Shown: positions 26,542 to 55,125, counted from the first letter of the stretch. The stretch: 64,000 nucleotides of DNA from Rhodospirillaceae bacterium (GCA_002709075.1 PAPV01000014.1:479-64478), one strand, 5' to 3'. Numbers and translations: made by a program. Notes: a model not told the origin generated them from the sequence alone.

Positions 26542-26554
26542 TGTACACATACAA
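26542..26554 (+). promoter_or_regulatory. related box TGTACACATACAA upstream of UbiD-1
   Basis: 12/13 match to the kor/44739 box, same orientation relative to the gene, 39 nt upstream of ATG 26594. Confidence 0.4.
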
Positions 26555-26593
26555 TCAGGGTGAGTTGAGGTTAATATCCAGAAGGAGCGAAGC

Positions 26594-28159
26594 ATGGCAG
26601 ACCGTATGGCTGTTAAATTGGAGGGAAAAGGCGCGAACGGCATGATTAGGGAGGAGGCGCTTGTAGATTTGCGTTCTACCCTAGATTGGTTGGGAGATGA
26701 TGTGCATTACATTAAAGCGCCAGTGGATCCGCATGTAGAAATGTGCACCATTACCAAAGCGTTTGATAATTCAAAGGTGATAGTCGCTAATAATATTAAA
26801 CGTTATCCAGGGGTCCGGATGATATCCAATCTTTATTCCCGTAAGGAACGCGTTTGTAAATTTCATAATTGTGAGGATTTTCGTGATATCAAGCTACAAC
26901 TTCTCTCTCAAAACTCAAATCCAATTCCTCCTAGGATTGTTAAGGATGCTCCAGTTCAAGAAGAAACGCTTATTCCTGGAAAAGATTTTGATCATATTGA
27001 AGAAATATTTCCGATTGCACAGCACACTTTTACAGATGGTGGAAGAATTTTTGGATCGGGATCACATTTATTTATGGGAGAACCCTTTGTTCCGGGCGGT
27101 GGTAGCCAAATATCTATGTATCGTATGTCGTTCCGGCCAGGGCAAAAGTATGCATCCATTAATATGGTGCCCGGTGGTGCGGGAGATGTAATTTGCTCCA
27201 GACACCCCGGGAAGAAGATACCGTGTACAGTCAATGTGTGTCCTCCTGTAGGGGCGGAGTTGGTTTCAGTGTCAACGCTTAACCCGGCTCTATTTCCTGG
27301 GCAAACCGATAAATTGGGATTTGCGGGGGCAATTCAAGGATTTCCGGTTGATGTCGTAAGGGCACAAACCGTTGACTCGTACGCTATTGCAAATTCTGAA
27401 TGGGTCTTAGAGGGATACGTTGTTGAGGGCGAACGTGTATGGGAGACCCAAGAGGCCGAGGACCTCGGTCGACAAGGTGTTGCTCTACTTCATCCAGAAT
27501 GGGCGCGGTCGATGGGACATGCCTACCGGACTCCAAGAGCATTTGAGCTTACAGCTATAACGCGGCGCAAACATAACCCTATTGTTTATACTCCTCACTT
27601 TGGAGCATTTTGGTATGAAGCACCATTTATGTGCGCATCAGTTTATGAACTTTGCGATCGTATGGCTCCTGGTTTTGTAAAAGATGTTGCAAGCTGGCTG
27701 GGATTAACTTTATGGGGTGGTTTAGTTGTACAAGTGAAAAAAAGGCGCCGCTCTGATGAGGGAATGCAGCGGAATTTGTTAACTGCCATAATGGGTTTAT
27801 TCCGTGGAATGCGACTGGTAGTGATGGTTGATGAGGATATTGACCCATGGCAACCCGAGGATGTTATGTGGGCAATACAATCCCGTGCCTCTGCTCAAAA
27901 GGATTATGTTGTTTATAACGAGTATGGGCGGGGGCAAGCTTTTCAGCCATCGGAACTAAAAATAGGTAATATTTCGGTGTCTGATGGTGGTATGGGGATT
28001 GATGCGACTGCCCCACTTGGTGAGCAGGTGTATGAACGATCGTACTATCCCGTGAAAGAAATGGACTTTTCACAATGGTTCTCTGAAGATGAAATAGAAA
28101 ATCTTAAGAATCTTCAAGATCCATATTTTCGTTGGTTAGGAGAAACTGGTCACGGGTAG
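26594..28159 (+). CDS. UbiD-family decarboxylase, divergent paralog (UbiD-1)
   Basis: 521 aa; ISMYRMSF, SEWVLEGYV, VMVDEDIDPWQPEDVMWAIQSR align to UbiD family; the EGPFGE acid-base loop is replaced by a longer EGERVWETQEAEDLGRQGVALLHPEW segment. Confidence 0.7.
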   Translation: MADRMAVKLEGKGANGMIREEALVDLRSTLDWLGDDVHYIKAPVDPHVEMCTITKAFDNSKVIVANNIKRYPGVRMISNLYSRKERVCKFHNCEDFRDIKLQLLSQNSNPIPPRIVKDAPVQEETLIPGKDFDHIEEIFPIAQHTFTDGGRIFGSGSHLFMGEPFVPGGGSQISMYRMSFRPGQKYASINMVPGGAGDVICSRHPGKKIPCTVNVCPPVGAELVSVSTLNPALFPGQTDKLGFAGAIQGFPVDVVRAQTVDSYAIANSEWVLEGYVVEGERVWETQEAEDLGRQGVALLHPEWARSMGHAYRTPRAFELTAITRRKHNPIVYTPHFGAFWYEAPFMCASVYELCDRMAPGFVKDVASWLGLTLWGGLVVQVKKRRRSDEGMQRNLLTAIMGLFRGMRLVVMVDEDIDPWQPEDVMWAIQSRASAQKDYVVYNEYGRGQAFQPSELKIGNISVSDGGMGIDATAPLGEQVYERSYYPVKEMDFSQWFSEDEIENLKNLQDPYFRWLGETGHG

Positions 28160-28202
28160 TGCCAGTTTTCCTCACCATATTTTAACCACACTAATTTAAA
28201 AA

Positions 28203-28943
28203 CTAGCTACCAAAATTTGAGCCACCGTTTATGTGCATATTTTCTCCTGTCATAAAACTGGCAGCGTCAGATATAAGGAAAAGTGCGCCTTCGGCAATTT
28301 CTTTTGGTTCCGCAAACCGTCCTAGAGGAAAGCGTTCTTTCATAGTCTGTTTTTTTTCTTCTGTGTAATGAGCAATCATGGGGGTGTTGGTAATACCAGG
28401 GCTCACGGCATTGACGCGAATGCCTTTTGGCCCAAGCGACCGAGCTAGACATCGGGTAAGTGCTAACACTCCTCCTTTAGAGCTTGCATAGGCCGGTCCA
28501 CCCTGTCCGTTACCGCCAGTTACCCCGAATAAAATGGATGCCGAAGTTGTGAGAACAATTGAACCTTTTTCAGATTTTGTCATTTCATTTGCTGCCGCGC
28601 GAGCGATTTGAAATGTTCCCGTTACATTGATGTTCAGAATTCGGTTCATTTCTTCGGGTTCTAATTCGTTCCAGCGGAGACTTGAGTGTGCTGCCCCGCA
28701 GTGAATAAGTCCATCTAAAGATCCGAAGTGGGTTGTGGTATGATGAATAACATCAATGCAATCATTTTCCGAGGTCACATCACCTTTGTATTTTGAAATA
28801 TTATCTGATGAAGGAATATTTTGATTTAACTTTTCAAATTGTGGATCAAACGCAACAACTTTTGCTCCTCGTTCATGTAATAGTTTTGTGCAGGCTAAGC
28901 CTATCCCGCTTGCTGCACCGGTAACAATTACTGTCTTTCTCAT
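28203..28943 (-). CDS. SDR family oxidoreductase
   Basis: TGAASGIGLA, NxAG region, YASSKGG catalytic motif; start trimmed to ATG 28943. Confidence 0.85.
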   Translation of the reverse strand: MRKTVIVTGAASGIGLACTKLLHERGAKVVAFDPQFEKLNQNIPSSDNISKYKGDVTSENDCIDVIHHTTTHFGSLDGLIHCGAAHSSLRWNELEPEEMNRILNINVTGTFQIARAAANEMTKSEKGSIVLTTSASILFGVTGGNGQGGPAYASSKGGVLALTRCLARSLGPKGIRVNAVSPGITNTPMIAHYTEEKKQTMKERFPLGRFAEPKEIAEGALFLISDAASFMTGENMHINGGSNFGS

Positions 28944-29018
28944 TTTTTGTCCCATTTTTTTTTTGTGAAGAATGAAGACCGTATTGCCGGTCATCTTTTC
29001 AAATGGTACATCACTTTT

Positions 29019-31182: not shown

Positions 31183-31194
31183 GGGTTTCTCCTA

Positions 31195-32942: not shown

Positions 32943-33016
32943 GTGTTGGAACTAATACGGCCGACAATTTTTTTGTTGATGGCTGTCTAGTTTATACAGG
33001 TTGGTATTTGTAATTA

Positions 33017-39553: not shown

Positions 39554-39568
39554 TTAAGAAAATATTTT

Positions 39569-40848: not shown

Positions 40849-41337
40849 TTGGCACTTAAGAAAAAAGTAAATGTTATTAACTGCGAAGATAAGAAGTTGA
40901 GTGACTCCTCCAAAAATTCTAATAAATACATTTTGGAAAAACAAGTGGGACATTTACTTCGTCGTGCCCATCAGCGTCATACTTGGATTTTCCAGAAAAG
41001 AATTGGCGACAGGAGTTTGACACCGGTTCAATTCGCTGCTTTGGTGAAACTCAATGTTTTGGGGGAAGTGTCTCAAAATCAACTTGGCCGAAACACCGCT
41101 ATGGATGCATCGACAATGCAAGGTGTTATTAAACGTCTTGCATCACGTGGGTTAATAGAGAGAAAAGCTGACCCTAACGATCGTCGTAGATTACTTTTGA
41201 GTCTGAGTGAGGAGGGTAAAAAAGTTCTGGAATTGGCAATTCCGTCAGGCCGAATCATAACAAATTCTACTCTCTCGCCTCTTTCTGACGATGAGCAAAA
41301 AACACTTATAGCATTGTTAAAAAAAATCTCATATTAA
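40849..41337 (+). CDS. MarR family transcriptional regulator
   Basis: 162 aa; LTPVQFAALVKL, winged-helix RLASRGLIERKADPNDRR; TTG start (another in-frame TTG lies ~45 nt downstream). Confidence 0.8.
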   Translation: MALKKKVNVINCEDKKLSDSSKNSNKYILEKQVGHLLRRAHQRHTWIFQKRIGDRSLTPVQFAALVKLNVLGEVSQNQLGRNTAMDASTMQGVIKRLASRGLIERKADPNDRRRLLLSLSEEGKKVLELAIPSGRIITNSTLSPLSDDEQKTLIALLKKISY

Positions 41338-41592
41338 GTTTGTCTTCAGCGTTAATTTTAAAACCAAATATAGTTGTTTAGATATTCCATGTTTCAATCA
41401 TGTTATTTCTTATGGTTAAAAATATAAGCAAAATTAAAAATGACAATCGATGTTTTTGTTGTGAGGTAGTTTGAAAAAAAATTTAAACGAGCAACTATTA
41501 GGGAAGTAAATTTTTTCAATCATAAATATACTTAAACCGAAGAACTTAGTCGCATATGAAGGTTATTTGACCAATGTTTAAACTTTTTTCTA

Positions 41593-42618
41593 TTAGATAA
41601 TTGTCCAAGTTCTACCATTGTGCATAAGGTTAGTTACGGTCATTGGGGAAGTTTGTTTTGTTGCTTCCTGAATTTGCAGATGAACAGCTTCTTCATAGGT
41701 TTTGTTCGGATTAGCATATATTACACCCATTGCCACAGGCCATTTCGGCGCTTGCATTTTCGCTAGCATAGAAGCGAGGACGCGATTTGTTCTGTCGTGA
41801 ACTAAAATATCTGTTTTTTTAACACCCTTGGGTCCAATAGTTACTATTTCAAGCTCGAGTTTTTCTTTATTAAGACGAAGTCCCTTTTCAGCGTCCTTTC
41901 CAAAAATAAGTGGTTTTCCGTGTTCGCAGAAAATTTGACCATCACTGCTGTTATTTTTTTCTGTGAAGGAAGAAAACACACCATCATTATAAACAATACA
42001 ATTTTGTAAAATTTCAACTAATGCAGCACCTTTGTGAGCTTTCGCCTCTGCTAATATATTTGGCAGGAGTTTTTGATCGGTATCGACACCACGAGCAACA
42101 AAAGTTGCATTGCAACCCATAGCAAATTGACAAGCAGATACTGGTGAGTCAATAGATCCTGTCGGTGTAGATGGCGATTTGGTGCCAATATCAGAGGTTG
42201 GGGAATATTGTCCTTTAGTTAGGCCGTATATCGAATTGTTGAATAAAAGAATTTGTAGGTCAATATTTCGTCGCAGTGCATGCAAAGTATGGTTGCCGCC
42301 AATAGATAGCATATCTCCGTCTCCACCGATTACCCAGACGTCGAGGTCAGGATTGCTTAATTTCACACCAGTCGCTACCGCAGGTGCTCTTCCGTGGATT
42401 GTATGAAAACCATATGTCTCCATGTAATAAGGAAATCGCGCAGCGCAGCCGATGCCAGAGATAAAGACGGTTTTAGCAGGGTCAGCTCCGTTATCTGAAA
42501 GTGCGCGCTGAACTCCCTTTAGAATGGCATAATCGCCGCAACCTGGACACCAACGAACTTCTTGATCGGAAGCAAAATCATTCGGTTTGAGTTCTTTATG
42601 TGGACTTTCATTTTTCAC
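41593..42618 (-). CDS. korB: 2-oxoglutarate/2-oxoacid:ferredoxin oxidoreductase beta subunit (TPP-binding)
   Basis: WCPGCGDYAIL, GGDGD, IYGLTKGQ motifs; ATGA-type 4-nt overlap with korA. Confidence 0.85.
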   Translation of the reverse strand: MKNESPHKELKPNDFASDQEVRWCPGCGDYAILKGVQRALSDNGADPAKTVFISGIGCAARFPYYMETYGFHTIHGRAPAVATGVKLSNPDLDVWVIGGDGDMLSIGGNHTLHALRRNIDLQILLFNNSIYGLTKGQYSPTSDIGTKSPSTPTGSIDSPVSACQFAMGCNATFVARGVDTDQKLLPNILAEAKAHKGAALVEILQNCIVYNDGVFSSFTEKNNSSDGQIFCEHGKPLIFGKDAEKGLRLNKEKLELEIVTIGPKGVKKTDILVHDRTNRVLASMLAKMQAPKWPVAMGVIYANPNKTYEEAVHLQIQEATKQTSPMTVTNLMHNGRTWTII

Positions 42619-44489
42619 TTTAAATTCTCCAATCGAGTCCTAATTTGGGCTTCAAGATCTGCTACTTTAAAAGGTTTACCATTAATTTGTGTAAATGACT
42701 CTGCTGCGATTAAATATTCAGCTTTTAAAAGTTTTACAAGTTGTCCATTATTTATTTCAGGGACTAGAATTTTTTCAAAATTTGAAAGCAGTTTGAATAT
42801 ATTTTTCGGCATGGGCCATATATGCCGGATATGCAATTGTGATACTTGTAACCCATCAGAACGACAACGGCGAACAGCTTGTTCGATCGCACCAAACGTT
42901 GACCCCCAACCCACAACAAGTAATTTTCCGGACTCCGCACCATTTGCGATTTCTTGATCGGGTATGTCATTGCTTATATTATTGATTTTTGCCGCACGAA
43001 CTTTTGTCATCTTGTGATGATTATCAGCATCGTAAGAAATATTTCCAGAATCATAATCTTTTTCAATTCCGCCTATGCGGTGCTCTAAACCCGGGGTTCC
43101 GGGCACCACCCACGGACGAGCAAGTGTTTGTTCATTACGATTATAAGGCTGAAAATCTGTTTTTTCGGTGTGAAAACTTACCGGAAACTCTTTAATATTC
43201 TCAACGTCTGGAATGCGCCACGGCTCGGCCGCATTCGCAAGATATCCTTCGTTTAAAAACATTACAGGTGTCATGTATTTAGTGGCTAATCGAACCGCCT
43301 CGACTGCGCACTCAAAGCAGTCTGATGGTGTAGATGCAGAAATAACCGGCATTGGTGTATCGCCGTTTCGTCCCCAAACGGCTTGTAGTAGATCAGACTG
43401 CTCCGTCTTGGTAGGCATACCTGTGGATGGCCCTGCTCTTTGAAAATTTATTATAACAAGTGGGAGTTCTGTCGAAACCGCTAGTCCCATAGCTTCCGTC
43501 TTAAGTGCAATACCGGGCCCGGAACTTGATGTAATACCCAAGCATCCGGAGAAGGATGCTCCAATAGCTGCGCAAATCGCAGATATTTCATCCTCTGCCT
43601 GAAATGTAATTACTCCATGTTCGCGCAGATTGCTGAGTGAATGTAAAAGGGGAGAGGCAGGGGTTATAGGGTATGAACCAAAAAATAATTTTAAACCAGT
43701 TTTTTCGGCGCCGGCAAGCAGGCCCCATGTTGTTGTTTCTATTCCTGTTACGGCGCGATAAATTCCAGGTTTTTTTTCTGCTTTTGGAACAATAAAGGTG
43801 GCTAAATCAGCTGAAATTTCAGCCGTTTCTCCATAAGAATGGCCTGCATTTAGAGCTGCTACATTTGCTTTAGCAATATTAGGACGGTCAGAAAAACGCG
43901 ACTCAAGCCATTCTAAAGTAGACTGCCTCTCTCGACCATACATCCAACACATTAAACCTAGTGTCCAGATATTTTTACAGCGAAGAGCATCGCGTTTGCT
44001 AAGGCCGAGGCCTTCCACGGAAGCAAGAGTAAGTTTTGATATATCAATTTTTATAGAACGAAAAAACTCAAGTGTATTATCTTCCAAAGGGTCTGTATCG
44101 TAACCGGCTTTTTTAATATTTCGCGGATTAAATGTACCCGTATTAACAATTACTAATCCGCTTGATGCTAAATCTGAGAGATGCACTTTTAATGCTGCTG
44201 GGTTCATAGCAACCAAAACATCAGGCCTGTCACCTGGGGTTTTAATACTATGCGAGGCAAAGTTTATTTGAAATGCTGAAACACCAAAAGTTGTTCCGAC
44301 CGGGGCACGTATTTCTGCTGGAAAATCCGGAAAAGTTGAAAGGTCATTACCCATCAGTGCTGTTGATTGCGTGAATTGAGTTCCCGTTAACTGCATACCA
44401 TCGCCGGAATCACCCGCAAAACGTATCACTACAGAGTCTAGAATCTCTCTTCCTTTGAAATTCGTGTCCAATTTTGTTGCCATTTTCAT
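42615..44489 (-). CDS. korA: 2-oxoglutarate/2-oxoacid:ferredoxin oxidoreductase alpha subunit (fused gamma-alpha)
   Basis: 624 aa; FAGDSGDGMQLTG, FPAEIRAP N-terminal gamma-type domain then pyruvate:flavodoxin OR core domains. Confidence 0.85.
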   Translation of the reverse strand: MKMATKLDTNFKGREILDSVVIRFAGDSGDGMQLTGTQFTQSTALMGNDLSTFPDFPAEIRAPVGTTFGVSAFQINFASHSIKTPGDRPDVLVAMNPAALKVHLSDLASSGLVIVNTGTFNPRNIKKAGYDTDPLEDNTLEFFRSIKIDISKLTLASVEGLGLSKRDALRCKNIWTLGLMCWMYGRERQSTLEWLESRFSDRPNIAKANVAALNAGHSYGETAEISADLATFIVPKAEKKPGIYRAVTGIETTTWGLLAGAEKTGLKLFFGSYPITPASPLLHSLSNLREHGVITFQAEDEISAICAAIGASFSGCLGITSSSGPGIALKTEAMGLAVSTELPLVIINFQRAGPSTGMPTKTEQSDLLQAVWGRNGDTPMPVISASTPSDCFECAVEAVRLATKYMTPVMFLNEGYLANAAEPWRIPDVENIKEFPVSFHTEKTDFQPYNRNEQTLARPWVVPGTPGLEHRIGGIEKDYDSGNISYDADNHHKMTKVRAAKINNISNDIPDQEIANGAESGKLLVVGWGSTFGAIEQAVRRCRSDGLQVSQLHIRHIWPMPKNIFKLLSNFEKILVPEINNGQLVKLLKAEYLIAAESFTQINGKPFKVADLEAQIRTRLENLK

Positions 44490-44535: not shown

Positions 44536-44558
44536 TTGTTTGTGTACATACAATTATT
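44536..44558 (-). promoter_or_regulatory. 23-bp promoter/operator block upstream of korA (minus-strand reading AATAATTGTATGTACACAAACAA)
   Basis: 22/23 identical to 44670..44692 read on the plus strand; box ends 46 nt upstream of korA ATG; AATAAT is a plausible -10. Confidence 0.6.
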
Positions 44559-44646
44559 CAAATTTCTGATTTTCAATCCAACCTGTCAAGTCTGCTTGGA
44601 ATCAATATTTAAAAAAATGATACATATGTGTTTTTACCTCCTTTGC

Positions 44647-44675
44647 TTGACAGTATTCGCTGCTGATTGAATATT
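44647..44675 (+). promoter_or_regulatory. sigma70-like promoter for the 44739..48320 operon
   Basis: TTGACA (44647-44652), 17-nt spacer, AATATT (44670-44675). Confidence 0.5.
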
Positions 44676-44713
44676 TGTATGTACACAAACAAAAATTATA
44701 TGTACACAAACAA
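44670..44713 (+). promoter_or_regulatory. two direct TGTACACAAACAA boxes (44680-44692, 44701-44713), 21-bp phasing, putative operator
   Basis: Exact 13-mer repeated twice right after the putative -10 and 25 nt upstream of ATG 44739. Confidence 0.6.
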
Positions 44714-44738
44714 ATTGTACCGGGAATTTGGAGGCACC

Positions 44739-46226
44739 ATGGCGCAAATGAGAGAAAATAAAGATGATGGTTTGATACGATGCGATGCTTGTCCAGTGTT
44801 GTGCAGAATTCGTCCTGAAAAGACCGGTGCCTGCAATCGATACGGAAATTTTGAGGGCAAACTTACAAGAGTGGATCCAGTAGTAGTTGTACAAAAAGCG
44901 CTGGATGAAGATTGTGAACTTGTTCCATTTGCGAGAGCATCGGAGGAGTGGGACGGATCTCTGATAAGTCAAGCACCAACATTTTTGACTGGCATTGGAT
45001 CTACTACAACTTATCCTGACTATAAGCCTGCTCCTTTTATTGTGTCGAGCGATCAAGATGGTGTTGATATGGTTACTGTCGTCAGTGAGGGAGTTTTTTC
45101 ATATTGTGGTGTTAAGGTTAAAATCGATACTGATGCTTACATCGGTCCAGAGCCTGCTCCAATTAGAGTAAAAGGCGAGCAGGTTGGTCATGTAACCACC
45201 GCTGAATATGGCAGTCAAATGTTGGCAATTGGCGGTGTACGGCACTTGACCGGAGGAAGTAAAAAAGAAGGTATGGTGACCTGTAACACTATGATGCGAC
45301 TTTGCAATAAAGAACCAGTTGAAATGACTATTGATGGTGGTGCGAATATAATAGTTCAGGGAGGAGAGCCTCCAATTATTAATGGGTTTAAAGAAGAACG
45401 TATGCGGGTAGGGTGTGGCTCAGCAACAGTTGGAATATTTGCACCTCAATGGAAAGACCATGTGGATGAGGTAATAGTCGTAGATGATCATATTACGGCA
45501 GTTTTATCCGAGCATCAGGCGGGACAATTTCTTGATATGCCTCTAGCTGGAATCAGAGTAAGAGGACGTCGTTCTACGCTTGGTCGTTATTTTCAAGTTG
45601 CAGATCATGGGGCAGGTTGGGGAGGAACCGATGTTGAAGATCCATTAGATATAATAGAGAAGATTGATGAAGATATTGCTTGGCCAGGCCTACGATTGTT
45701 GATGGTATCCACAACTGGTCAGGATTCTGCTTGGTATGTTTTAGATGATAATCTCGCACCTCAACCGACTAAAATGCCCCAGGAGGTAAAACTAGTTGTT
45801 GATCGTATTGGTGAAAATTGCGAGCCAGCGTTGTGTACTGTGATGTTCATGGCAGGCGCAGGTGGCTCTTTAAGGGCTGGTGTAACTATTAATCCTGTGC
45901 ACTTAACCCGAAGTGTTCGTGCTTCAGAGACACAAGTAACATGCGGCGGAGCACCTGTATTTGTGTGGCCGGGTGGTGGTATTACTCTTTTGGTGGATGT
46001 GAACCAAATGCCAGATAATTCCTTCGGGTGGGTTCCCACGCCTGCATTAGTTGCTCCCATAGAGTTCACCGTGCGTCGTGATCTTTATGAACGAATTGGA
46101 GGTTATTCTGATAAGGTAAAAAATATTCATGATGTTATTTCTGAACTAGGAAATATTCGATCTGTTCCATGGCGGGAAAATCACCCATGGCCGCCAGAGG
46201 GCATGGCTCGCAAAGATAAGGTGTAA
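44739..46226 (+). CDS. Cys-rich protein of the family commonly auto-annotated as 6-hydroxynicotinate reductase
   Basis: 495 aa from ATG 44739 (GGAGG 4 nt upstream); N-terminal CDACPVLCRIRPEKTGAC cluster motif; family assignment is from memory and unverified. Confidence 0.55.
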   Translation: MAQMRENKDDGLIRCDACPVLCRIRPEKTGACNRYGNFEGKLTRVDPVVVVQKALDEDCELVPFARASEEWDGSLISQAPTFLTGIGSTTTYPDYKPAPFIVSSDQDGVDMVTVVSEGVFSYCGVKVKIDTDAYIGPEPAPIRVKGEQVGHVTTAEYGSQMLAIGGVRHLTGGSKKEGMVTCNTMMRLCNKEPVEMTIDGGANIIVQGGEPPIINGFKEERMRVGCGSATVGIFAPQWKDHVDEVIVVDDHITAVLSEHQAGQFLDMPLAGIRVRGRRSTLGRYFQVADHGAGWGGTDVEDPLDIIEKIDEDIAWPGLRLLMVSTTGQDSAWYVLDDNLAPQPTKMPQEVKLVVDRIGENCEPALCTVMFMAGAGGSLRAGVTINPVHLTRSVRASETQVTCGGAPVFVWPGGGITLLVDVNQMPDNSFGWVPTPALVAPIEFTVRRDLYERIGGYSDKVKNIHDVISELGNIRSVPWRENHPWPPEGMARKDKV

Positions 46227-46231
46227 GAAAA

Positions 46232-47101
46232 ATGTTTGATGGTGCTCAAGTATGCATGCTTCCTGATGGCAAGCGGCTTCATTTGTGCGAAGGACCCATT
46301 GATATCATTCTTGAGGCTTTTGGTCCTCCGAGCGAAATAACTGCAGCCTATAAACGTGCAGAGGTTTGTTTCCTTGATATTCTCTCTACACTAGTTGGTG
46401 AGTTATCTGATTTACGAAAACAGATAGGTGACCCAGAATGCTATCCCGTTGGTCCCGTTGCTAGAAGAATGTTTAACGCTTGTTGGCCTCATCGCAAATG
46501 TTTTGTAACTCCTATGGCAGCTGTAGCAGGTTCTGTGGCAGATGAAGTTTTGACATCATTATCTGCTTCAAAATGTCTTTCAAAAGCATATATCAATAAT
46601 GGGGGTGATATTGCATTTTACTTGGCGAAAGGGGAAAGTTTAACCGCCGGGATTGTAGGTGATTATCATCTTCCCCAGATTAACGCTACGTGTGCTTTTA
46701 CTTCGGATTCGCCTGTCCGTGGGATCGCAACTAGTGGTTGGAAGGGGCGTTCTTTTTCGTTGGGAATCGCGGATACCGTTTCTGTGCTTGCGGAAAATGC
46801 TGCGAAAGCAGATGTGGCAGCTACATTGATAGCTAATGCTGTTGATGTTGATCATCCATCGGTATCTCGTGTTTGTGCTCGTGAATTGGACCCCGATAGT
46901 GATTTAGAGAATCGTGCAGTGACGACAGGGGTAGGAAAACTTGAACCAGAGGTGGTAGAGGAGGCACTTAATCAGGGAGTAAAAACAGCAAAAATTATGC
47001 TTGCATCTGGACTAATTCACGCAGCAGTGTTGATATTAAACAATAAATATAAAATGGTCGGTGATATGCCGGCTGGTTTGTTGGCGGGAGAAAAACAATG
47101 A
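46232..47101 (+). CDS. UPF0280 family protein (ApbE superfamily fold)
   Basis: 289 aa; NNGGDI, GIATSG, ADVAATLIANAV resemble ApbE-fold signatures; 5 nt after upstream stop. Confidence 0.55.
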   Translation: MFDGAQVCMLPDGKRLHLCEGPIDIILEAFGPPSEITAAYKRAEVCFLDILSTLVGELSDLRKQIGDPECYPVGPVARRMFNACWPHRKCFVTPMAAVAGSVADEVLTSLSASKCLSKAYINNGGDIAFYLAKGESLTAGIVGDYHLPQINATCAFTSDSPVRGIATSGWKGRSFSLGIADTVSVLAENAAKADVAATLIANAVDVDHPSVSRVCARELDPDSDLENRAVTTGVGKLEPEVVEEALNQGVKTAKIMLASGLIHAAVLILNNKYKMVGDMPAGLLAGEKQ

Positions 47102-47733
47102 AAAATGTACGGAATATCAAAGATATACAAGTGCCACCTGCTGGTGATTTTGGAGAATTAGTAAAAATTCGCAAATATGTTTTGCATACAGAAGAAGTAC
47201 TACATGAGTTTGGACCGCCCGCTAACCCTCCGCAGTTGCGAGGCTTCATTGCGGCGGTAGCGGCTAATCCTTATGCTGGCGAGTATATTGAAGATCTTAT
47301 ACCTCTGATGGAAGCACTTAAACCATTGGGTTTGCTGATGGCAAAGCGGCTAGCGGACAGTCTTGGTGGAGCGGACAAGATTGTTGCCTATGGAAAATCG
47401 GCGCTGGTAGGTGAAGATGGAGAGCTTGAACATGCAGCACTGTGGCATGAACCAGGAGGCTACGGCATGCGTGAACTGATTAAACCATCAAAAGCCATTG
47501 TGCCATCTACAAAAAAGGTTGCGGGGCCGGGTCGGCCTTTAGATGTCCCTCTTGCTCATGTGAACGCAGCATATGTGCGTAGCCATTTTGATTGTGTAGA
47601 ATGTTGTATCGCTGATGCACCACGTCGTGACGAGGTTGTTTGGGTCCAGGCGATGGCAACTGGTCCTCGAATTTATGATCGGTCTGGTGGTCTATCGGCG
47701 GATGAAATAAAAGGAGAGGATGGATTACGCTAA
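47098..47733 (+). CDS. 'amino acid synthesis' family protein (PF06684/DUF1185), paralog 1
   Basis: 211 aa; YGKSALVGEDGELEHAA, DVPLAHVNAAYVRSHFD, DAPRRDE; ATGA overlap with upstream gene. Confidence 0.7.
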   Translation: MKNVRNIKDIQVPPAGDFGELVKIRKYVLHTEEVLHEFGPPANPPQLRGFIAAVAANPYAGEYIEDLIPLMEALKPLGLLMAKRLADSLGGADKIVAYGKSALVGEDGELEHAALWHEPGGYGMRELIKPSKAIVPSTKKVAGPGRPLDVPLAHVNAAYVRSHFDCVECCIADAPRRDEVVWVQAMATGPRIYDRSGGLSADEIKGEDGLR

Positions 47734-47735
47734 TA

Positions 47736-48320
47736 ATGAGGGTATCTCCTCGTAAAACTCATGTTTCCTGTGAGACCACTTATGTTGATGGAGGGAAAAA
47801 AGCAGAAATTCCCTCACGAAAGGCCGTTGCAATTGCTGTAATTGAAAACCCTTTTGCTAATAAATTTCATAAAAGACTTACTCAACTCGAAAATATTGGT
47901 GAATGGCTTGGGAAATACTTAGGGGAGTTGGCGGTAAATGCAATGAATGCGGCACCAAGTGAAATAGAGAGTTTTGGCAAGGCTGCTATTGTTGGAGAGA
48001 ATGGTGAGTTGGAGCATGCTGCTGCCATTTTGCACCCAAAATTGGGGCAACCTCTCCGTGAGGTGATGGGTGGTGGTCGAGCCCTTGTGCCTTCTGCAAA
48101 AAAATTGGGTGGACCTGGAATTCGTATCGATGTACCACTTGGTCATAAGAACGCAGCCTACGTTCGCAGCCATTTTGACTCAATTGAAGCTGGTTTGCCA
48201 GATGCGCCGCGCGCAAATGAAATTCTCGTGTGCGTAGCAGTGGCGGACTTCGGCAGACCTCATGCCCGGGTTGGCGGATTGAAAAAAGAGGATGTGGTTG
48301 GAAAAGACGGCTTAAAATGA
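47736..48320 (+). CDS. 'amino acid synthesis' family protein (PF06684/DUF1185), paralog 2
   Basis: 194 aa; FGKAAIVGENGELEHAAAILHPKLG, DVPLGHKNAAYVRSHFD, DAPRANE; 2 nt after upstream stop. Confidence 0.75.
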   Translation: MRVSPRKTHVSCETTYVDGGKKAEIPSRKAVAIAVIENPFANKFHKRLTQLENIGEWLGKYLGELAVNAMNAAPSEIESFGKAAIVGENGELEHAAAILHPKLGQPLREVMGGGRALVPSAKKLGGPGIRIDVPLGHKNAAYVRSHFDSIEAGLPDAPRANEILVCVAVADFGRPHARVGGLKKEDVVGKDGLK

Positions 48321-48954
48321 GTTTTTTGTAAATTAACCTGTTCATGTTTTTCTGCTAAAGTAAAAAAATTCAACGTTGAATACAAAAAATCTCTCACGTG
48401 AGTAAAATGCTATTATTGGATTGATAAATTCTTTCCGTGAATGATATGTCATGAGGCCGTTTATCCGACACAACTTAATTCAGTGTGTTATTTAAAAAAG
48501 GTCAATCTATGGTTCAAATGCGCATCGTTTCTTCGTCTGATTTCATTTTTGTATTCCAAGAAAAATTTCGATATTACGTTGATATTCAACGATGAGAGTA
48601 TTGATGTGTTTGCTTCTCTACCCAAAGAGAGTTATTAACAGAACTCCAACAGCGTCATATTGGTTTTAGTGTTTGCCGTGAGATAACTAAGACTCTGGTG
48701 TGTGACCGTCACCATATAAGCAGTGGGTGTGGTGCCTGGAACAGAAACCTCAAAAACATCATATTTGGTTCTTTGATTGAGATGGGCATTTCAAAAAAGT
48801 TTAGTTTAAACATCATTGAAGCCACGGATTTGATACCATCGGAGCTACTTTTTTACAAAAACAATTTCTGCATCATTTTATAACGTCAACTCAAATTATA
48901 AGTTCGACAACTTATTCCACAATATTTAAATGCAAAATACAATATTTTAGATGT

Positions 48955-51291
48955 TTAGTTTTTTGCAGCTTGGATGGCTTCCCAGACGCGAGCTGGAGTA
49001 GCGGGTGCGTCAAGCTTTGTAACACCAACAGGGGCCAGTGCGTGCAGTATAGCGCACATTGATGCTGCCATAGATCCACCATTTCCCGCTTCCCCACAAC
49101 CTTTTACTCCTAAAGGGTTGGTGGTAGAGGGTACGTTGCGAGTTGAAAACGCTATATTGCAAAGATCATCGGCTCGAGGCATGCAGTAGTCCATGTAAGA
49201 CCCAGTAACAAGTTGTCCATTTTCATCATAGACAGTATTCTCAAGCAAAACTTGCCCAATACCTTGCATTATTCCTCCTTGTACTTGGCCCTCGACAACC
49301 AGAGGGTTAATTACTAACCCGAAGTCATCTACAACAGTATACCGGACAATTTCTGTAACTCCGGTTTCGGGATCAATTTCTACCTCACATATGTGACAAC
49401 CATTTGGGAATGATGAAGGACTGGTATCGTGAACTGCTTTGTCGTCTAGTGTGTCTGGAACATCTTTTGGCAAATTAATTTCAGATTGTAATCTTTTTGA
49501 TAGCTCTATTATACCGATTGATCGATCTGTTCCGGCTACAATAAAGTCACCTGCGGCAAATTCAATATCCTCTGCTGCAGCCTCAAGAAAATGTGCGGCA
49601 GCAATTTTTCCTTTTTCTGCAATCTTTGTGGCGCAGTCATTAATGGCATTTCCTGCCCCCAAAAGTGTTTTGGAGCCCCCAGATCCGCTGGCGCCCTTAC
49701 TCATAAGTTCTGAGTCATTTTGGATAACACGTATTTTTTCATATGGAACGCCCAGTTTGTCAGACAAAATCTGCGCAAAGGGGGTGCGATGACTTGTTCC
49801 CATGTCTTTTGCTCCAGTAATCAGTGCTACCGTGCCATCATCATGAAATCGAACATCACAAAGCTCTCCAGCGGCGCCCGTGTTTTCAAGATAAGGGGTT
49901 AGAGCAATACCGCATAATTTTCCACGTTGAGCAGCTTTTGCTCTTCGCTCTTCAAAACCAGCCCAATCCGCTTGTTTTAAACATTCATCCATCAACGCTT
50001 CAAATTCACCAGAATCATACTCTTGCCCGTTAGGAGTTTTCCAAGGGAATGACCCAGCTGGGATTAGATTTTTTCTTCGGATTTCAACCCTATCAAAGCC
50101 CATTTCGCTGGCTGCTTTATCAATTAGTTGCTCCAAAATATATTTGGATTCTGGACGCCCTGCACCGCGGTATGGTCCCGTAGGAACCGTGTTTGAAAAC
50201 ACGGCTTTTGTTCCGTAGGCAAAAGCGGGCGTTTTATACACACTGACCAAATTTCGGGAGATTACACCAGTGACTGGACCAGGACCCATAGCGGTTGAAT
50301 AAGCCCCCAAATTCCCAACACCCCCGCATCTGAGCGCCAAAAAATTTCCATCTTTATCCAAAGCCAATTCTGCACTTATAAGACTGTCACGACCCTGTTG
50401 GTCTGAGAGAAAACTCTCGGTCCTACTGGCTGTCCATTTTACTGTTCGGTTCAGCTTCCGGGAAGCATACATAACAGCGATAGGCTCTGCTAGACACGCA
50501 CCTTTCATGCCAAAAGAACCGCCCACATCATTGGAAAGAATACGAATTTTTTCATCTTTCATTTTGAAAATTGCTTTAGCTAACTGCGATCTCATTCCAA
50601 CGACACCTTGCGTTGGCAGAGTTACAGTGAATTTGTCCAAGTGCGAGTCGTATTCGGCTATAACAGCTCGTGGTTCCATTGCATTTACCACCATACGGGT
50701 AGATAAAACACGAATACTGCTTACATGGTCGGCTTCCTCAAATGCCTGGTCGCAGGCTTTCTGATCTCCAGTAAAATAGTCAAGGCAAATGTTATTTTCT
50801 GCTTCGTCCCATAGTTGAACAGCACCATCTTGAAGCGCATCCCACGCCTCAACAGTTACTTTTTCTGGCAGAATATCTACTGCTACTAATTCAGCTGCTT
50901 CTTCTGCAAGCGCTGCAGTTTCTGCAATAACAACTGCTATTATTTCACCAACGTGTCGAACCCGACCTTCAGCCATCCCACAACGAGGAGGTACAAAGTA
51001 GGGGGATCCGTCCCGATTTTTGATTGGCATGTTTGATGGAATGTCTCCCACGCTATCGGCTCGCAAATCCTCCGCAGTATAAATTGCCAACACACCAGGC
51101 ATTTCCAAAGCTGTACATATCTTTATTGATTTAATTATCCCGTGGGCAACCTGACTGCGAACAAAACGCGCATAGAGTTGCCCGTCCGCGGAATAATCAT
51201 CCGTGTATTCCCCGCCACCAGTCAGAAGTCGAGGATCCTCTGATCGATAAACAGGTTGCCCAATACCAAAATTTAGCGGTATCCTACTCAT
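48955..51291 (-). CDS. xanthine dehydrogenase/aldehyde oxidase family molybdopterin-binding large subunit (CoxL-like, non-CO-dehydrogenase type)
   Basis: 778 aa; GQPVYRSEDPRLLTG N-terminus, GSFGMKG, GPYRGAGRPE active-site loop; 8-nt overlap with hyuB. Confidence 0.85.
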   Translation of the reverse strand: MSRIPLNFGIGQPVYRSEDPRLLTGGGEYTDDYSADGQLYARFVRSQVAHGIIKSIKICTALEMPGVLAIYTAEDLRADSVGDIPSNMPIKNRDGSPYFVPPRCGMAEGRVRHVGEIIAVVIAETAALAEEAAELVAVDILPEKVTVEAWDALQDGAVQLWDEAENNICLDYFTGDQKACDQAFEEADHVSSIRVLSTRMVVNAMEPRAVIAEYDSHLDKFTVTLPTQGVVGMRSQLAKAIFKMKDEKIRILSNDVGGSFGMKGACLAEPIAVMYASRKLNRTVKWTASRTESFLSDQQGRDSLISAELALDKDGNFLALRCGGVGNLGAYSTAMGPGPVTGVISRNLVSVYKTPAFAYGTKAVFSNTVPTGPYRGAGRPESKYILEQLIDKAASEMGFDRVEIRRKNLIPAGSFPWKTPNGQEYDSGEFEALMDECLKQADWAGFEERRAKAAQRGKLCGIALTPYLENTGAAGELCDVRFHDDGTVALITGAKDMGTSHRTPFAQILSDKLGVPYEKIRVIQNDSELMSKGASGSGGSKTLLGAGNAINDCATKIAEKGKIAAAHFLEAAAEDIEFAAGDFIVAGTDRSIGIIELSKRLQSEINLPKDVPDTLDDKAVHDTSPSSFPNGCHICEVEIDPETGVTEIVRYTVVDDFGLVINPLVVEGQVQGGIMQGIGQVLLENTVYDENGQLVTGSYMDYCMPRADDLCNIAFSTRNVPSTTNPLGVKGCGEAGNGGSMAASMCAILHALAPVGVTKLDAPATPARVWEAIQAAKN

Positions 51292-53041
51292 CCCGGGGTT
51301 TCTCCAAATTTTCTATCAAGATTTTGCGTTTTTTATTAGTTTTAACTATATTTGCTTTGCCGCTTTTATCTATACAGACGCCAAAAAGTTCTTCTGCTTG
51401 CAGTTCCGTGTAGTAACCCCGTTTCACATCACTTTGTACCAGACTTATATCTCGTTCGCATGGATTACCATAGCCACCACCACCAGGAGTTGAAACTCTA
51501 ACAGTATCATTCTGATTTACCTCGATATCTTGGTCTTTTGATAGATGTGGCGGTATGTAATCTACACCATTTTGGCTGATCACAACCCTGTTAACGCCGC
51601 CATTCGCTCCACCAAGTACCCCTAACGGTCCTGTTCGCCCATGATCCATAACCATCGAAGCTCTTGCCTCACCTCTCTGGAGTCTAATTTTGTAGTTTAC
51701 TCCAAATCCTCCTCGATATTTTCCGGCTCCTCCGGACCCTTCATGAAGTGAAAATTCTTCAAAAATAACTGGGTAATATTGTTCCATAACCTCTATGGGA
51801 GTTGTTTTTGATATTCCAATTGTTGAGCAACCATTCGAGATACCATCCCCAAAATTACTTCCACCATAACCACCACCAGATATGACATACATTACGTAGG
51901 GTCGATCTTTTTCTGGATCAACACCACCAAGACAGAAATTCCCACTTGTACCTGCAGGCGCGGCAAAAAGTTTGTTGGGTATAGCTTCCACTAATGCTAC
52001 GAATACGGCCTCTGCGATGCGTTGACTAACTTCTGCAGCACAACCAGAAACTGGACGTGGATATTCTGCATATAGAAAAGTTCCCTTTGGATCATGAATA
52101 TGAAGTGGGTCAAATGTGCCTGCATTTATTGGTACATCAGGAAAAATGTGTTTCATAGCCAAATATATTGAAGATCTCGTGGTAGCAATCACAGAATTCA
52201 TTGGTCCAAGGCAAGGTGGACTGGAGTCCGACATATCAAAATATAATTCAGTTCCCTCGCAACGAATCTTCATTTTAATTTCCAGAGGTTTGTCCACTAC
52301 ACCATCGGAGTCAACAAATGCACTTCCATTGTATTCACCATCAGGGATATCATTAATGCATGCTCTCATTTGCTGTGCTGCCCGTTCGCGCAGTTCCTCA
52401 ATTGCTTGTTTAACTGTTTGTACGCCGTACCGTTCCAGCAATACCTCGAAGCGTTTTTCTCCAACAGTCAGAGCTGCAGCCTGTGCCTTTATATCTCCTA
52501 TACGTTGATCAGCGATCCTTATGTTTGAAAGCACTATTGAGAGTATTTCTTTATCTATAACGCCCTCTTTATATAGTTTAACTGGCGGCAACCTCAATCC
52601 TTCCTGCTCGACCTCAGTCGCACTTGCAGAAAAACCACCAGGTACAGATCCACCTGTGTCTGGCCAATGACCAGTGTTGGCCAACCATGCGAAAAGTTCT
52701 CCCTGATAAAAAAATGGTTTTACGAAGCGTACATCCATTAGATGTGTTCCGCCCAGATATGGGTCATTTACAATATAAACATCACCAGCTTTAGCATTTT
52801 TCGCTCTTTCGATTACACATTTAGTGCCAAACTGCATTGTTCCTACAAACACCGGCAAACCTAATTCCCCTTGGGAAATTAAATCTCCGTTTTCTGGATG
52901 ATAAATGCCATCTGACCTATCCAAAGCCTCTGAAATTACTGGACTAAATGCAGACCTTACAAACGCGAGATCCATCTCATTGCAAACCTGCTGAAGACCC
53001 GATTGAATAACGGCTAATGTAACGGGGTCTAGCGAACTCAT
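51284..53041 (-). CDS. hyuB: hydantoinase B/oxoprolinase family protein
   Basis: 585 aa; DPVTLAVIQSGL, NDPYLGGTHLMD, GGGYG motifs. Confidence 0.8.
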   Translation of the reverse strand: MSSLDPVTLAVIQSGLQQVCNEMDLAFVRSAFSPVISEALDRSDGIYHPENGDLISQGELGLPVFVGTMQFGTKCVIERAKNAKAGDVYIVNDPYLGGTHLMDVRFVKPFFYQGELFAWLANTGHWPDTGGSVPGGFSASATEVEQEGLRLPPVKLYKEGVIDKEILSIVLSNIRIADQRIGDIKAQAAALTVGEKRFEVLLERYGVQTVKQAIEELRERAAQQMRACINDIPDGEYNGSAFVDSDGVVDKPLEIKMKIRCEGTELYFDMSDSSPPCLGPMNSVIATTRSSIYLAMKHIFPDVPINAGTFDPLHIHDPKGTFLYAEYPRPVSGCAAEVSQRIAEAVFVALVEAIPNKLFAAPAGTSGNFCLGGVDPEKDRPYVMYVISGGGYGGSNFGDGISNGCSTIGISKTTPIEVMEQYYPVIFEEFSLHEGSGGAGKYRGGFGVNYKIRLQRGEARASMVMDHGRTGPLGVLGGANGGVNRVVISQNGVDYIPPHLSKDQDIEVNQNDTVRVSTPGGGGYGNPCERDISLVQSDVKRGYYTELQAEELFGVCIDKSGKANIVKTNKKRKILIENLEKPRDE

Positions 53042-55083
53042 TTGGTAATCTCCGTATCAATATTCATTATAATATTGCCAAAAATATCAGTGTACATATT
53101 ATCTTTGGGTTCCATAATTACGGTTGTATCGCTTTGTTCAAGGATAGCAGGGCCTTGCAAAGTTGTTTCTAGTGGCATTGCCTCTCTATTGTAAATAGGT
53201 GTTTCTGTGCGGCCACCTTCAAACCAAACCAGGCGGGCCCCGGTTTGCGCTTTTTCAATTCTGTTTGTTCGCATTTTAATATCCATGAGATTAGAAAGTT
53301 CGACCTGTTTGCGCTTTCCAATTACCGCAGTGTGCAAATTTACAACGACCGGTCGGATCTCATCGAGTTCAACGGCAAATCTGTTCCAATATGCTGATGC
53401 AAAAGCATCATGGAGTTTCCGCTTCGTAATGTTTTTATTTACGGAAACGGTAAGAATATGTGTTTGTCCTTGAAATTGCATATCGATATCGTGAAAAATA
53501 ATGATATCTTCCACCTCTATACCTTCTGCATTAATCGTCTCTTGGCCACGCGTTTCTTGTTCTGTGAAAATCGCTGAAATTTCTTCCATGTTTGCTTCGA
53601 CCAAAGATTTATTAATCGTATTAACGTAGTCATGTCGAACATCGGCCACTACACAACCCACTGCATTTGTAATGCCTGGTCTTGCCGGAACTAGAACTTT
53701 TGGAATACCCAGTTCACGAGCGAGTGCGGCTGCGTGCAGAGGACCAGCTCCACCAAAGGGAAATAAAGCAAAGTCTCTTGGATCATGTCCTCTAGCAAGG
53801 GAGACAATTCTGAGAGCACCGGCCATTTTTGTATTGGCAATTTGTATTATCGCAGCAGCCGCTTCCTCAGGAGAATTTAAACCCAGAGGTTCACTGATTT
53901 TTTTTGTAAATATATCAATTATTTTATCAAGTCCAATATCAGAATTTGCCATAATTTCTGGATTTAGCCGTCCCAGTAGCATATTCGCATCTGTTATCGT
54001 CGGCTGCACACCACCGCGGCCATAACAAATAGGTCCTGGCACTGCACCGGCACTCTCTGGGCCCACTTCCAACAGGCCAGCAGGGGTTATAGCCGCGATT
54101 GACCCGCCACCAGCACCAATTGTTCGCACATCGACCATAGGAACGTGAATGGGCATCGCATACTCGATTTCTAATTCTGAGGAAACTTGGGGTATGCCGT
54201 TTTTGATAAGCGCCACATCACAACTTGTTCCACCCATATCACAGGTAATAACATTATCATATCCAGCGCTTTTTGCTGTGTAGGCGGCGGCCATCACGCC
54301 TGAGGCTGGTCCAGACATAACGGTGTTAACAGCGGTTTCGGAAATTAATTTGGATGATACCGTACCACCATTGCCCTGCATTACTAGCAAATCATGGACA
54401 TAGCCTCGGTCTTTTAGTTCATTCCTAAGCTTCTTTATATAATTGTCCAAAACCGGTTGGATCGCTGCATTTATCATCGCCGTAGTTCCACGTTCATATT
54501 CGCGAAATTCAGACATTACAGCGCTTCCACGAGTAATAAAGTCGTTCGGCCAAATCTCTCTCACAACCTGTTCTGCATGTTTTTCATTAGTATCATTGAC
54601 ATATGAATGAAGAAAGTGAATCACGATGGAGTCAACTCCCATATCGAGCAATCTTTGTGCTGCTTTTCGGACATCATTCTCATCCAAGGCTGTTATGATT
54701 TGCCCGTTTGCGCCAATTCGTTCTGACGCCTCCAAACGCCTTTCTCGCGGTATCAAGCATTCAAAACTGCCTGTGAGTCCGTATGGGTTCGGTCTTGTTC
54801 GACGACCAAGTTCAAGCGAGTCCCGAAAACCTAGGGTTGTTATGAGTCCACATTTTGCGATTTTTCGTTCTAAAAGGGCATTAGTAGTAACCGTTGTTCC
54901 ATGCACTATGGTGTGAATAGAAGCTGGTTGAACACCTCCTTCAGTTATTGCTGACAGAACTCCAAATGCCTGATTTTCCGGAGTTGAAGGCACTTTAGCA
55001 ATTTTTACTGTGCCCGTCTCGTCATCTAGAATTATTAAATCGGTAAAAGTACCACCTACATCCACTCCTACAATTCGGCTCAT
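53038..55083 (-). CDS. hyuA: hydantoinase A/oxoprolinase family protein (ATP-binding, ASKHA fold)
   Basis: 681 aa; GVDVGGTFTD, DMGGTSCD, GAGGGSIA motifs; 4-nt overlap with hyuB. Confidence 0.8.
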   Translation of the reverse strand: MSRIVGVDVGGTFTDLIILDDETGTVKIAKVPSTPENQAFGVLSAITEGGVQPASIHTIVHGTTVTTNALLERKIAKCGLITTLGFRDSLELGRRTRPNPYGLTGSFECLIPRERRLEASERIGANGQIITALDENDVRKAAQRLLDMGVDSIVIHFLHSYVNDTNEKHAEQVVREIWPNDFITRGSAVMSEFREYERGTTAMINAAIQPVLDNYIKKLRNELKDRGYVHDLLVMQGNGGTVSSKLISETAVNTVMSGPASGVMAAAYTAKSAGYDNVITCDMGGTSCDVALIKNGIPQVSSELEIEYAMPIHVPMVDVRTIGAGGGSIAAITPAGLLEVGPESAGAVPGPICYGRGGVQPTITDANMLLGRLNPEIMANSDIGLDKIIDIFTKKISEPLGLNSPEEAAAAIIQIANTKMAGALRIVSLARGHDPRDFALFPFGGAGPLHAAALARELGIPKVLVPARPGITNAVGCVVADVRHDYVNTINKSLVEANMEEISAIFTEQETRGQETINAEGIEVEDIIIFHDIDMQFQGQTHILTVSVNKNITKRKLHDAFASAYWNRFAVELDEIRPVVVNLHTAVIGKRKQVELSNLMDIKMRTNRIEKAQTGARLVWFEGGRTETPIYNREAMPLETTLQGPAILEQSDTTVIMEPKDNMYTDIFGNIIMNIDTEITK

Positions 55084-55106
55084 AATTTACCTTCCTGCGC
55101 AAAGAT

Positions 55107-55125
55107 TCATTCGTGTACATATAAT
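55107..55125 (-). promoter_or_regulatory. related box upstream of hyuA (minus-strand reading ATTATATGTACACGAATGA)
   Basis: ATTATATGTACAC is 13/13 identical to 44695..44707; lies 23-41 nt upstream of hyuA ATG (55083). Confidence 0.45.

Follow-up and report, generated by a model that had tools for sequence, protein, structure and literature searches.

Genomic context of the repeated box

The subject of this analysis is a short palindromic DNA box that recurs upstream of several putative catabolic operons in a 64,000-nt stretch of the genome of a Rhodospirillaceae bacterium (GCA_002709075.1 PAPV01000014.1:479-64478); the whole stretch is referred to below as the window, and all coordinates are counted from its first letter. 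The box precedes UbiD-1, a monocistronic gene for a UbiD-family (prFMN-type) decarboxylase identified by Pfam (26594..28159, plus strand); the korA-korB operon, encoding the alpha and beta subunits of a 2-oxoacid:ferredoxin oxidoreductase (41593..44489, minus strand; Pfam, NCBIfam TIGR03710); a divergent four-gene module (44739..48320, plus strand), which encodes a 6-hydroxynicotinate reductase homologue (Hnr, 495 aa), a UPF0280/AbpE_bact protein (289 aa) and two AA_synth proteins (PF06684); and the hyuA-hyuB-Mo-hydroxylase operon (48955..55083, minus strand; Pfam), whose genes are joined by overlapping stop and start codons. A cupin-domain gene (25937..26464, minus strand; Pfam) is the divergent partner of UbiD-1, and a MarR-family regulator homologous to BpsR and NicR is encoded at 40849..41337 on the plus strand (PF01047, 2.2e-13; PF12802, 3e-11), with a true start that may lie at the ATG at 40871. 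We consider it probable that the box is an 18-bp palindromic operator of a dimeric MarR-family repressor, most likely of this protein.

An earlier sequence-only reading of the same DNA had placed TGTACACATACAA at 26542-26554, 39 nt 5' of the UbiD-1 ATG (26594), three copies of TGTACACAAACAA in the divergent korA/module intergenic region at 44536-48 (minus strand), 44680-92 and 44701-13 (both plus strand), and ATTATATGTACACGAATGA at 55107-55125 (minus strand), 23 nt 5' of the hyuA ATG (55083), the first 13 nt of which are identical to 44695-44707. All of these sites were recovered with exactly these coordinates and sequences.

The module/korA box was compared among 15 hnr loci (L001-L008 and L055-L061), which include three metagenome-assembled genomes (MAGs; L001-L003) fetched with the 495-aa protein and carrying copies 79-82% identical to that of the window, L001 lying on the complete MAG chromosome OX638326.1, and two Rhodobacterales plasmid loci (L057 and L058). 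The korA/hnr intergenic regions of the window and its relatives were placed in two alignments, A1 and A2. A metagenome scan for UbiD-1 returned 42 loci, among which 19 orthologues (83-98% identity) with upstream sequence were judged, and 400 kb from 54 related loci were scanned with a position weight matrix (PWM) at a cut-off of at least 15. Significance within the window was assessed with block shuffles for mismatch counts and with 100 shuffled windows for the PWM, and transcription factors (TFs) were sought by Pfam annotation of every window open reading frame (ORF) of at least 90 aa. Promoters throughout are consensus predictions.

Sequence, symmetry and significance of the box

Alignment of the window copies together with their flanks defines a conserved unit of 18 bp, TTGTATGTACACAAACAA, whose conserved positions form the imperfect palindrome TTGTAnGTnnACnTACAA, or, in a broader form, TYRTWYGYRYRCRWAYRA. 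The window copies are self-complementary at 14 of their 18 positions, and a perfect palindrome, TTGTTTGTATACAAACAA, is found in one of the relatives (L060). This symmetry fits a predicted binding site for a dimer.

The three kor/module copies deviate from TTGTATGTACACAAACAA at 0, 0 and 1 positions, the UbiD-1 copy at 3 and the hyuA copy at 4. The pattern TGTACACAWACAA is matched exactly at four places in the window, against about 0.004 expected by a rough estimate, and four window sites match the 18-mer with at most 3 mismatches against 0.05 expected in shuffles; when 4 mismatches are allowed, 1.1 sites are expected per shuffled window, and PWM matches of at least 12 are expected 0.86 times per shuffled window. 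The hexamer TGTACA alone is not over-represented in the window. Chance is thus far exceeded by the kor/module sites (n=3) and by that of UbiD-1, and the hyuA site, taken alone with its 4 mismatches in 18, is at chance level window-wide.

All five window sites are intergenic. A scan with TYRTWYGYRYRCRWAYRA matched the window at exactly these five and nowhere else, in agreement with the reading's impression, gained by eye, that no further clear copy exists, and neither the coding DNA of the window nor its remaining intergenic regions contain a comparable copy. Two weaker candidates were set aside: a sixth site in front of hyuB, TAATATGTACACTGATAT at 53084-53101 inside hyuA, has a PWM score of 6.1 and 6 mismatches in 18, which is chance level, and a sequence at 55357-55374, before a 165-aa ORF, scores 6.7 with 4 mismatches to a degenerate consensus and was likewise treated as chance.

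Beyond the window, TYRTWYGYRYRCRWAYRA has 39 exact matches in 533 kb against none in shuffles, a comparison that is partly circular since the consensus was derived from these sites. Every one of the 38 PWM matches in the 400 kb from related loci falls in a promoter of hnr, korA, marR, UbiD-1 or hyuA, and none lies in genuine coding DNA, the two flagged as IN_ORF being the UbiD-1 upstream position on short contigs. The reading had named a similar frequency of the motif inside coding regions as a refuting outcome; the motif is absent from coding DNA, both in the window and in the related loci. In marine DNA runs, which sample the natural population, the boxes are invariant.

Position and conservation of the boxes at predicted promoters

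In the korA/module intergenic region, the korA-proximal operator occupies 44536..44553 (TTGTTTGTGTACATACAA, which is TTGTATGTACACAAACAA on the minus strand; PWM 26.9), and two candidate operators precede the module: O1 at 44675..44692 (TTGTATGTACACAAACAA; PWM 26.9) and, 21 bp after it, O2 at 44696..44713 (TTATATGTACACAAACAA). A sigma-70-type promoter of the hnr module, TTGACA-N17-AATATT, is predicted at 44647..44675 on the plus strand, with its -10 at 44670-75 and with both hexamers conserved in A1 and A2. O1 and the -10 hexamer share one T, which opens the former and closes the latter, and since the box begins at 44675, the last base of this promoter, it covers the end of the -10 element and the expected start site. 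The korAB promoter is inferred at 44561..44589 on the minus strand (TTGACA at 44589-44584, N17, GAAATT at 44566-44561); its -35 block, TTGTCAAG, is invariant in both alignments, the promoter scan did not call its weak -10, and the korA-proximal box starts about 7 nt downstream of that element. Only the two divergent TTGACA -35 blocks, the -10-like GATATT/AATATT and the boxes are conserved in these alignments; the rest of the DNA has diverged.

Boxes of the module/korA type were found in 12 of the 15 hnr loci (L001-L008, L059 and L060, and in a variant form the plasmid loci L057 and L058) and were not found in L055, L056 and L061, the three most distant chromosomal hnr loci (69-71% identity). 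O1 is identical in sequence in L001-L008. The korA-proximal box keeps its position in L001-L007, L059 and L060 in either polarity: in L001-L003 it reads TTGTATGTACAC(G/T)TACAA on the plus strand, opposite to the window, and both polarities recur at the orthologous korA site in further relatives. The common orientation of the copies relative to their genes, which the reading had stressed, accordingly holds inside the window and fails outside it, the korA-proximal box being reversed in L001-L003, L059 and L060. O2 is missing from all relatives and unchanged in three independent marine runs; judged by this comparison, it is a tandem insertion or duplication specific to the window lineage.

In front of the hyuA operon, the minus-strand operator TTATATGTACACGAATGA (55107..55124; PWM 14.3) has a degenerate right half. 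It begins at the last T of a -10-like CATTAT (55129-55124, minus strand), which is separated by N17 from a -35-like TTGCTG (55152-55147). Orthologous hyuA genes (73-75% identity) carry TTGTATGTACACAAACAA in L051, TTGTTCGTACACAAACAA in L052 and TCATACGTATACAAACAA in L053 and L054, with scores of 26.9, 23.6 and 16.8, and these boxes occupy the position seen in the window; each of the four loci has its box fused to a CATAAT/CATTAT -10 lying 17 nt after a TTGNNN -35-like element. The right half GAATGA of the window site also recurs in the positionally conserved korA boxes of L004 and L060. The shared layout and the recurrence of GAATGA show that the hyuA site, though degenerate, is orthologous and real. 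Three of four marine runs show variants nearby, namely T>C at 55130, the position just before the -10-like hexamer, and TT inserted after 55286; the hyuA box itself is invariant. Divergent from hyuA lies the 165-aa ORF (55424-55921, plus strand), which has no Pfam match and an N-terminus that looks hydrophobic; a 46%-identical homologue beside hyuA in L051 marks it as a real conserved gene.

The operator of the divergent cupin/UbiD-1 intergenic region, TCGTCTGTACACATACAA (26537..26554), has a PWM score of 19.1, equal to the best of the 100 shuffled windows, and departs slightly from TTGTTTGTACACATACAA, the consensus of its clade. Fifteen of the 19 UbiD-1 orthologues have a box with a score of 15 or more, as a rule TTGTTTGTACACATACAA, degenerate remnants occur in two further loci, and UbiD-1 homologues at 60-74% identity have none. 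The box starts 43-81 nt before the ATG in orthologues and 57 nt before it in the window, often exactly 11 nt after a TTGACG hexamer; in these TTGACG promoters of the relatives it falls in the spacer/-10 region, and the -35 of the window's own promoter is unclear. The weight that the reading gave to similar distances from the start codon is not supported: these vary among orthologues, and what stays is the position relative to the promoter hexamers. Cupin homologues (61-83% identical) are divergent from UbiD-1 in about 20 metagenomic loci; this conserved divergent arrangement puts the UbiD-1 operator in a control region common to both genes and makes the cupin gene a possible further regulon member using the same operator.

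Retention of the box upstream of orthologous operons (module/korA in 12/15 hnr loci, UbiD-1 in 15/19, hyuA in 4/4) supports the predicted co-regulation of UbiD-1, korAB, the four-gene module and hyuA-hyuB-Mo-hydroxylase. The reading had further assigned these units to a single pathway, for which gene neighbourhoods give independent support: in L055 a 65%-identical UbiD-1 orthologue, an AMP-ligase, a Mo-hydroxylase and the hnr module are clustered and read in one direction, the same gene order is found in L061, and hyuBA is divergent from hnr...nicR on plasmid pLA6_008. A regulon spanning about 29 kb, as originally envisaged, stands for the four named units and not for the other operons of the island. 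No box was found in the window at UbiD-2/3, the AMP-ligase, the operon running from an amidohydrolase gene to marR, the isochorismatase genes or TctA, so that the regulon would cover part of the 29-kb span.

A BpsR/NicR-like MarR protein as the candidate regulator

The reading had listed the local MarR among the candidate regulators, and this proposal is now well supported. No other TF was found among the annotated window ORFs. The window MarR is 68% identical to the MarR adjoining korAB in L001, the synteny extends to L002-L005 and L059, and no other TF adjoins the kor/hnr genes in these six loci. In L001-L004 and L059 the box overlaps the -10 of the marR promoter itself, as in L001, where TTGACA-N17-GATTAT carries the box TTATTCGTACACAAACAA; this arrangement indicates probable autoregulation in these five relatives. 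Box and MarR are jointly absent from L055, L056 and L061, which we read as a likely phylogenetic limit of the TF-operator pair and not as counter-evidence. On the Rhodobacterales plasmids a MarR protein 46-49% identical to that of the window, annotated as nicR on one of them, adjoins hnr, and a related palindrome, e.g. TCATTTGCATACAAATGA, occurs at TTGACA-N17 promoters, namely those of the hnr operon, of the amidohydrolase/ferredoxin-reductase region and of the hyuA/hnr intergenic region.

Among the many MarR structures matched by the window protein, the most similar is PDB 2NNN (1.5e-35; 51% identity), an uncharacterised MarR of Pseudomonas aeruginosa in which F and Y replace two His of the residue tetrad discussed next; BpsR (6PCP/6PCO) is matched at 8e-27. 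BpsR of Bordetella bronchiseptica and B. pertussis is a MarR-family repressor of the nic nicotinate-degradation locus and is released by 6-hydroxynicotinate (6-HNA), which it contacts through Tyr15, His23, Arg26 and His32 (PDB 6PCP/6PCO; PMC6837509). In our alignment these residues correspond to Y27, H35, R38 and H44 of the window MarR, all four identical, and the tetrad is equally identical in the MarRs of L001, L003, L004 and L005. The four conserved residues and the nature of the target genes point to 6-HNA as the probable inducer. Taken together, these comparisons make the local MarR most likely the cognate repressor of the box.

Proposed mechanism and alternative explanations

In the mechanism that we favour, MarR dimers would sit on the operators when no inducer is present and would block RNA polymerase by occlusion or as a roadblock, a mode of repression suggested by the geometry of the box at the -10 and the start site. 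They would occupy the -10/+1 regions of the hnr-module and hyuA promoters, the early transcribed part of korAB and the UbiD-1/cupin promoter region. Accumulated 6-HNA, or a close pyridine analogue, would bind between the alpha-1 helices, as in BpsR, open the dimer and free the DNA, and four to five transcription units would then be induced together, bringing up the 6-hydroxynicotinate reductase module, KorAB as a source of low-potential electrons, the Mo-hydroxylase with the ATP-dependent, lactam-opening HyuAB, the UbiD decarboxylase and possibly the cupin protein. What the sequences show directly is the sites, their excess over chance and their symmetry, the conserved placement in orthologous promoters, the linkage of box and MarR gene and the conserved ligand contacts; the binding itself, repression as opposed to activation, the identity of the inducer and the functions of the enzymes are what we infer.

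Several observations weigh against this proposal. The promoters are predictions, the -10 elements of korA and UbiD-1 being weak or unclear; in the window, hyuA and UbiD-1 have degenerate sites, whose binding may be weak; and a search for RNA runs containing this sequence returned none. The window marR gene has no upstream box and seems to close an operon that is itself box-less, leaving autoregulation not evident there. L060 possesses boxes and no MarR in the 21 kb fetched, the position expected for the gene lying just past the edge of the locus. The MarR protein scores below every cut-off of the curated NCBIfam equivalogs, and its Rhodobacterales homologues (L057 and L058) keep the 6-HNA tetrad only partly, so that the ligand may differ across the family.

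Some of these observations would suit a different regulator. The box might be the operator of a TF encoded outside the window, e.g. a GntR/FadR-type protein or a TetR/NicS-like protein recognizing TTGT...ACAA palindromes, with the local MarR controlling, for instance, its own amidohydrolase-Rieske-ACAD-CoA-transferase operon. Palindromes of the T.GT...AC.A type are classically tied to GntR-family proteins, and both the box-less window marR at the end of a box-less operon and the MarR-less fetched segment of L060 agree with such an arrangement. We nevertheless regard it as unlikely, since no second TF was found in the window or adjoining kor/hnr in L001-L005 and L059, the marR promoter carries the box in five relatives, box and MarR disappear together from L055, L056 and L061, and MarR, hnr and the box are linked again on the Rhodobacterales plasmids; moreover, the only locus with a nearby GntR gene (L056) has no box. 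An RNA-level element (a 5'-UTR hairpin or a protein-binding site) or an element of an alternative-sigma promoter would account for the window copies all reading toward the downstream gene at 36-59 nt from the ATG, and the korA copy is probably transcribed. Yet orthologous korA sites occur in reversed polarity, the box lies 43 to 99 nt from the ATG while its distance to the -10/-35 hexamers is fixed, and the predicted transcription start lies inside the box at the module and hyuA promoters, where the full palindrome would remain untranscribed. Ordinary TTGACA-N17 -35/-10 elements flank the box, and there is no Rfam match at the gathering threshold in the window. The polarity flip, the fixed hexamer distance against a variable ATG distance and the lack of an Rfam match led us to discard the oriented-box, RNA-element and alternative-sigma readings, which we judge very improbable.

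A closer variant retains the MarR-operator pair and supposes activation or anti-repression at some sites, or another ligand, such as nicotinate, a pyridine-dicarboxylate or the UbiD-1 substrate. The geometry of the UbiD-1 box, only 11 nt downstream of a -35-like TTGACG in many orthologues, is indeed unusual, and parts of the tetrad are missing from the Rhodobacterales homologues, as are two of its residues from 2NNN, the closest relative in the PDB. On the other side, where promoters are best defined the box overlaps -10/+1, all four BpsR residues are kept throughout the window clade, and BpsR and NicR are themselves repressors released by 6-HNA (PMC6837509, PMC10269826); we therefore see little probability in this variant, and ligand-released repression by the local MarR is the explanation retained here.

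Gene content of the cluster

The reductive route from 6-hydroxynicotinate to tetrahydro-6-oxonicotinate (THON) has been described in Eubacterium barkeri, Azorhizobium and Bradyrhizobiaceae (PMC3511419). NCBI gives the name 6-hydroxynicotinate reductase to homologues (69-82% identity) of the 495-aa protein, the product of the first module gene, and the family is highly conserved; the protein itself has no Pfam or NCBIfam match, and the AA_synth proteins of the module have nothing above the NCBIfam cut-offs. It is plausible that KorAB supplies reduced ferredoxin to the reductase.

A tblastn search with Amidohydro_1 from L059 and L060 detected no enamidase-type Amidohydro_1 gene in the window. 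In the otherwise syntenic L059 an Amidohydro_1 gene (18114-19274) occupies the slot of the window hyuB-hyuA (51284-55083), between the isochorismatase genes and the Mo-hydroxylase, and hyuA-hyuB fill this slot also in L004 and L005; the Amidohydro_1 gene of L060 has a box 22 nt in front of it. Because of the shared operon slot, the lack of a window Amidohydro_1 and the L060 box, we suggest that HyuAB, an ATP-dependent lactamase-type enzyme, may be a non-orthologous replacement of the enamidase at the ring-opening step. The best NCBIfam match of HyuA is caprolactamase alpha, below the cut-off.

The Mo-hydroxylase (48955-51291, minus strand) is a lone 778-aa molybdopterin subunit, for which the annotated window ORFs include no Fer2 or FAD_binding_5 partner and which has no Fe-S or FAD subunit gene next to it; in the more distant hnr clusters L055-L057, L060 and L061 an FAD_binding_5 gene and a gene for a fused Fer2-MoCoBD protein (about 915 aa) lie directly upstream of hnr.

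The window also differs from L004, L005 and L059 in lacking a gene for a 440-aa Pyr_redox_2 protein in the marR-korB gap (41338-41592) and one for a 238-aa flavin reductase in the gap between the module and the Mo-hydroxylase (48321-48954); tblastn revealed no remnants of either, and the gaps consist of AT-rich non-coding DNA. In L001 a DDE transposase gene (DUF772/DDE_Tnp_1; 13727-15181) directly follows the hnr module, and hyuAB, instead of following the module, lie upstream of marR, which shows that the cluster has been rearranged between relatives.

Elsewhere in the island, two further UbiD paralogues and an AMP-dependent ligase (31449-34504 and 28947-30566) are found without a box. The ligase is 46% identical to that following the UbiD-1 orthologue in L055, and an inserted minus-strand SDR gene (28203-28994) may have split it from UbiD-1 in the window. 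Just upstream of cupin/UbiD-1, the stretch 24906-25937 contains an ORF with a GIY-YIG domain (101 aa) followed by about 730 bp without an ORF of at least 90 aa, and may mark an island boundary.

Relation to known systems and implications

A regulon of this type, in which a ligand-released repressor acts on palindromic operators before catabolic operons, is textbook and fairly ordinary. The window MarR shares with BpsR the winged helix-turn-helix fold of the MarR family, 42% identity over the aligned core and all four 6-HNA residues, and in both systems nicotinate-type catabolic genes are controlled from promoter-proximal sites, as predicted here for the window. The targets differ: those of BpsR are aerobic, maleamate-type nic genes (nicC and nicE) and biofilm genes, whereas those in the window, whose host is an uncultured marine alphaproteobacterium, belong to a reductive 6-HNA reductase route together with KorAB, HyuAB and UbiD. 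NicR of Pseudomonas putida KT2440 and Burkholderia gladioli is a MarR-type repressor that acts on the nicC and nicX operons and responds to pathway intermediates (PMC10269826), and control of several nicotinate catabolic operons by a single MarR repressor is likewise predicted for the window. The P. putida NicR, however, lacks the conserved 6-HNA residues of BpsR (PMC6837509) that the window protein has, and P. putida adds the TetR-type repressor NicS for nicAB, for which the window has no counterpart. In the reductive nicotinate clusters of Eubacterium barkeri, Azorhizobium caulinodans and Bradyrhizobiaceae, nicotinate dehydrogenase, Hnr and enamidase are encoded together; the window departs from them in the absence of the enamidase, with HyuAB in that operon slot, and in having KorAB divergent from hnr, and UbiD with the cupin gene in the regulon.

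As a more tentative possibility, for which we would claim less than even confidence, these genes may belong to a version of the reductive nicotinate pathway, as yet undescribed, that operates in aerobic marine Alphaproteobacteria: HyuAB would take over from the enamidase the opening of the tetrahydro-6-oxonicotinate ring, KorAB would deliver low-potential electrons to the 6-hydroxynicotinate reductase, and UbiD with the cupin protein would feed in a carboxylated pyridine; the palindrome would then be the first defined operator of the BpsR subfamily.

The precise recognition sequence of BpsR was reported as unclear in the structural study of 2019 (PMC6837509), and the box provides a testable operator model for the BpsR/NicR-like MarR proteins; if the model is true, the palindrome could guide the search for BpsR targets in Bordetella. 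Shared regulation and neighbourhood would also tie UbiD-1, the cupin protein, KorAB, HyuAB, the UPF0280 protein and the two AA_synth proteins, whose annotations are vague, to 6-hydroxynicotinate metabolism in hosts that are abundant uncultured marine bacteria. The proposed exchange of the enamidase for HyuAB is a concrete, assayable hypothesis, and would be a case of non-orthologous replacement in the catabolism of the pyridine ring.

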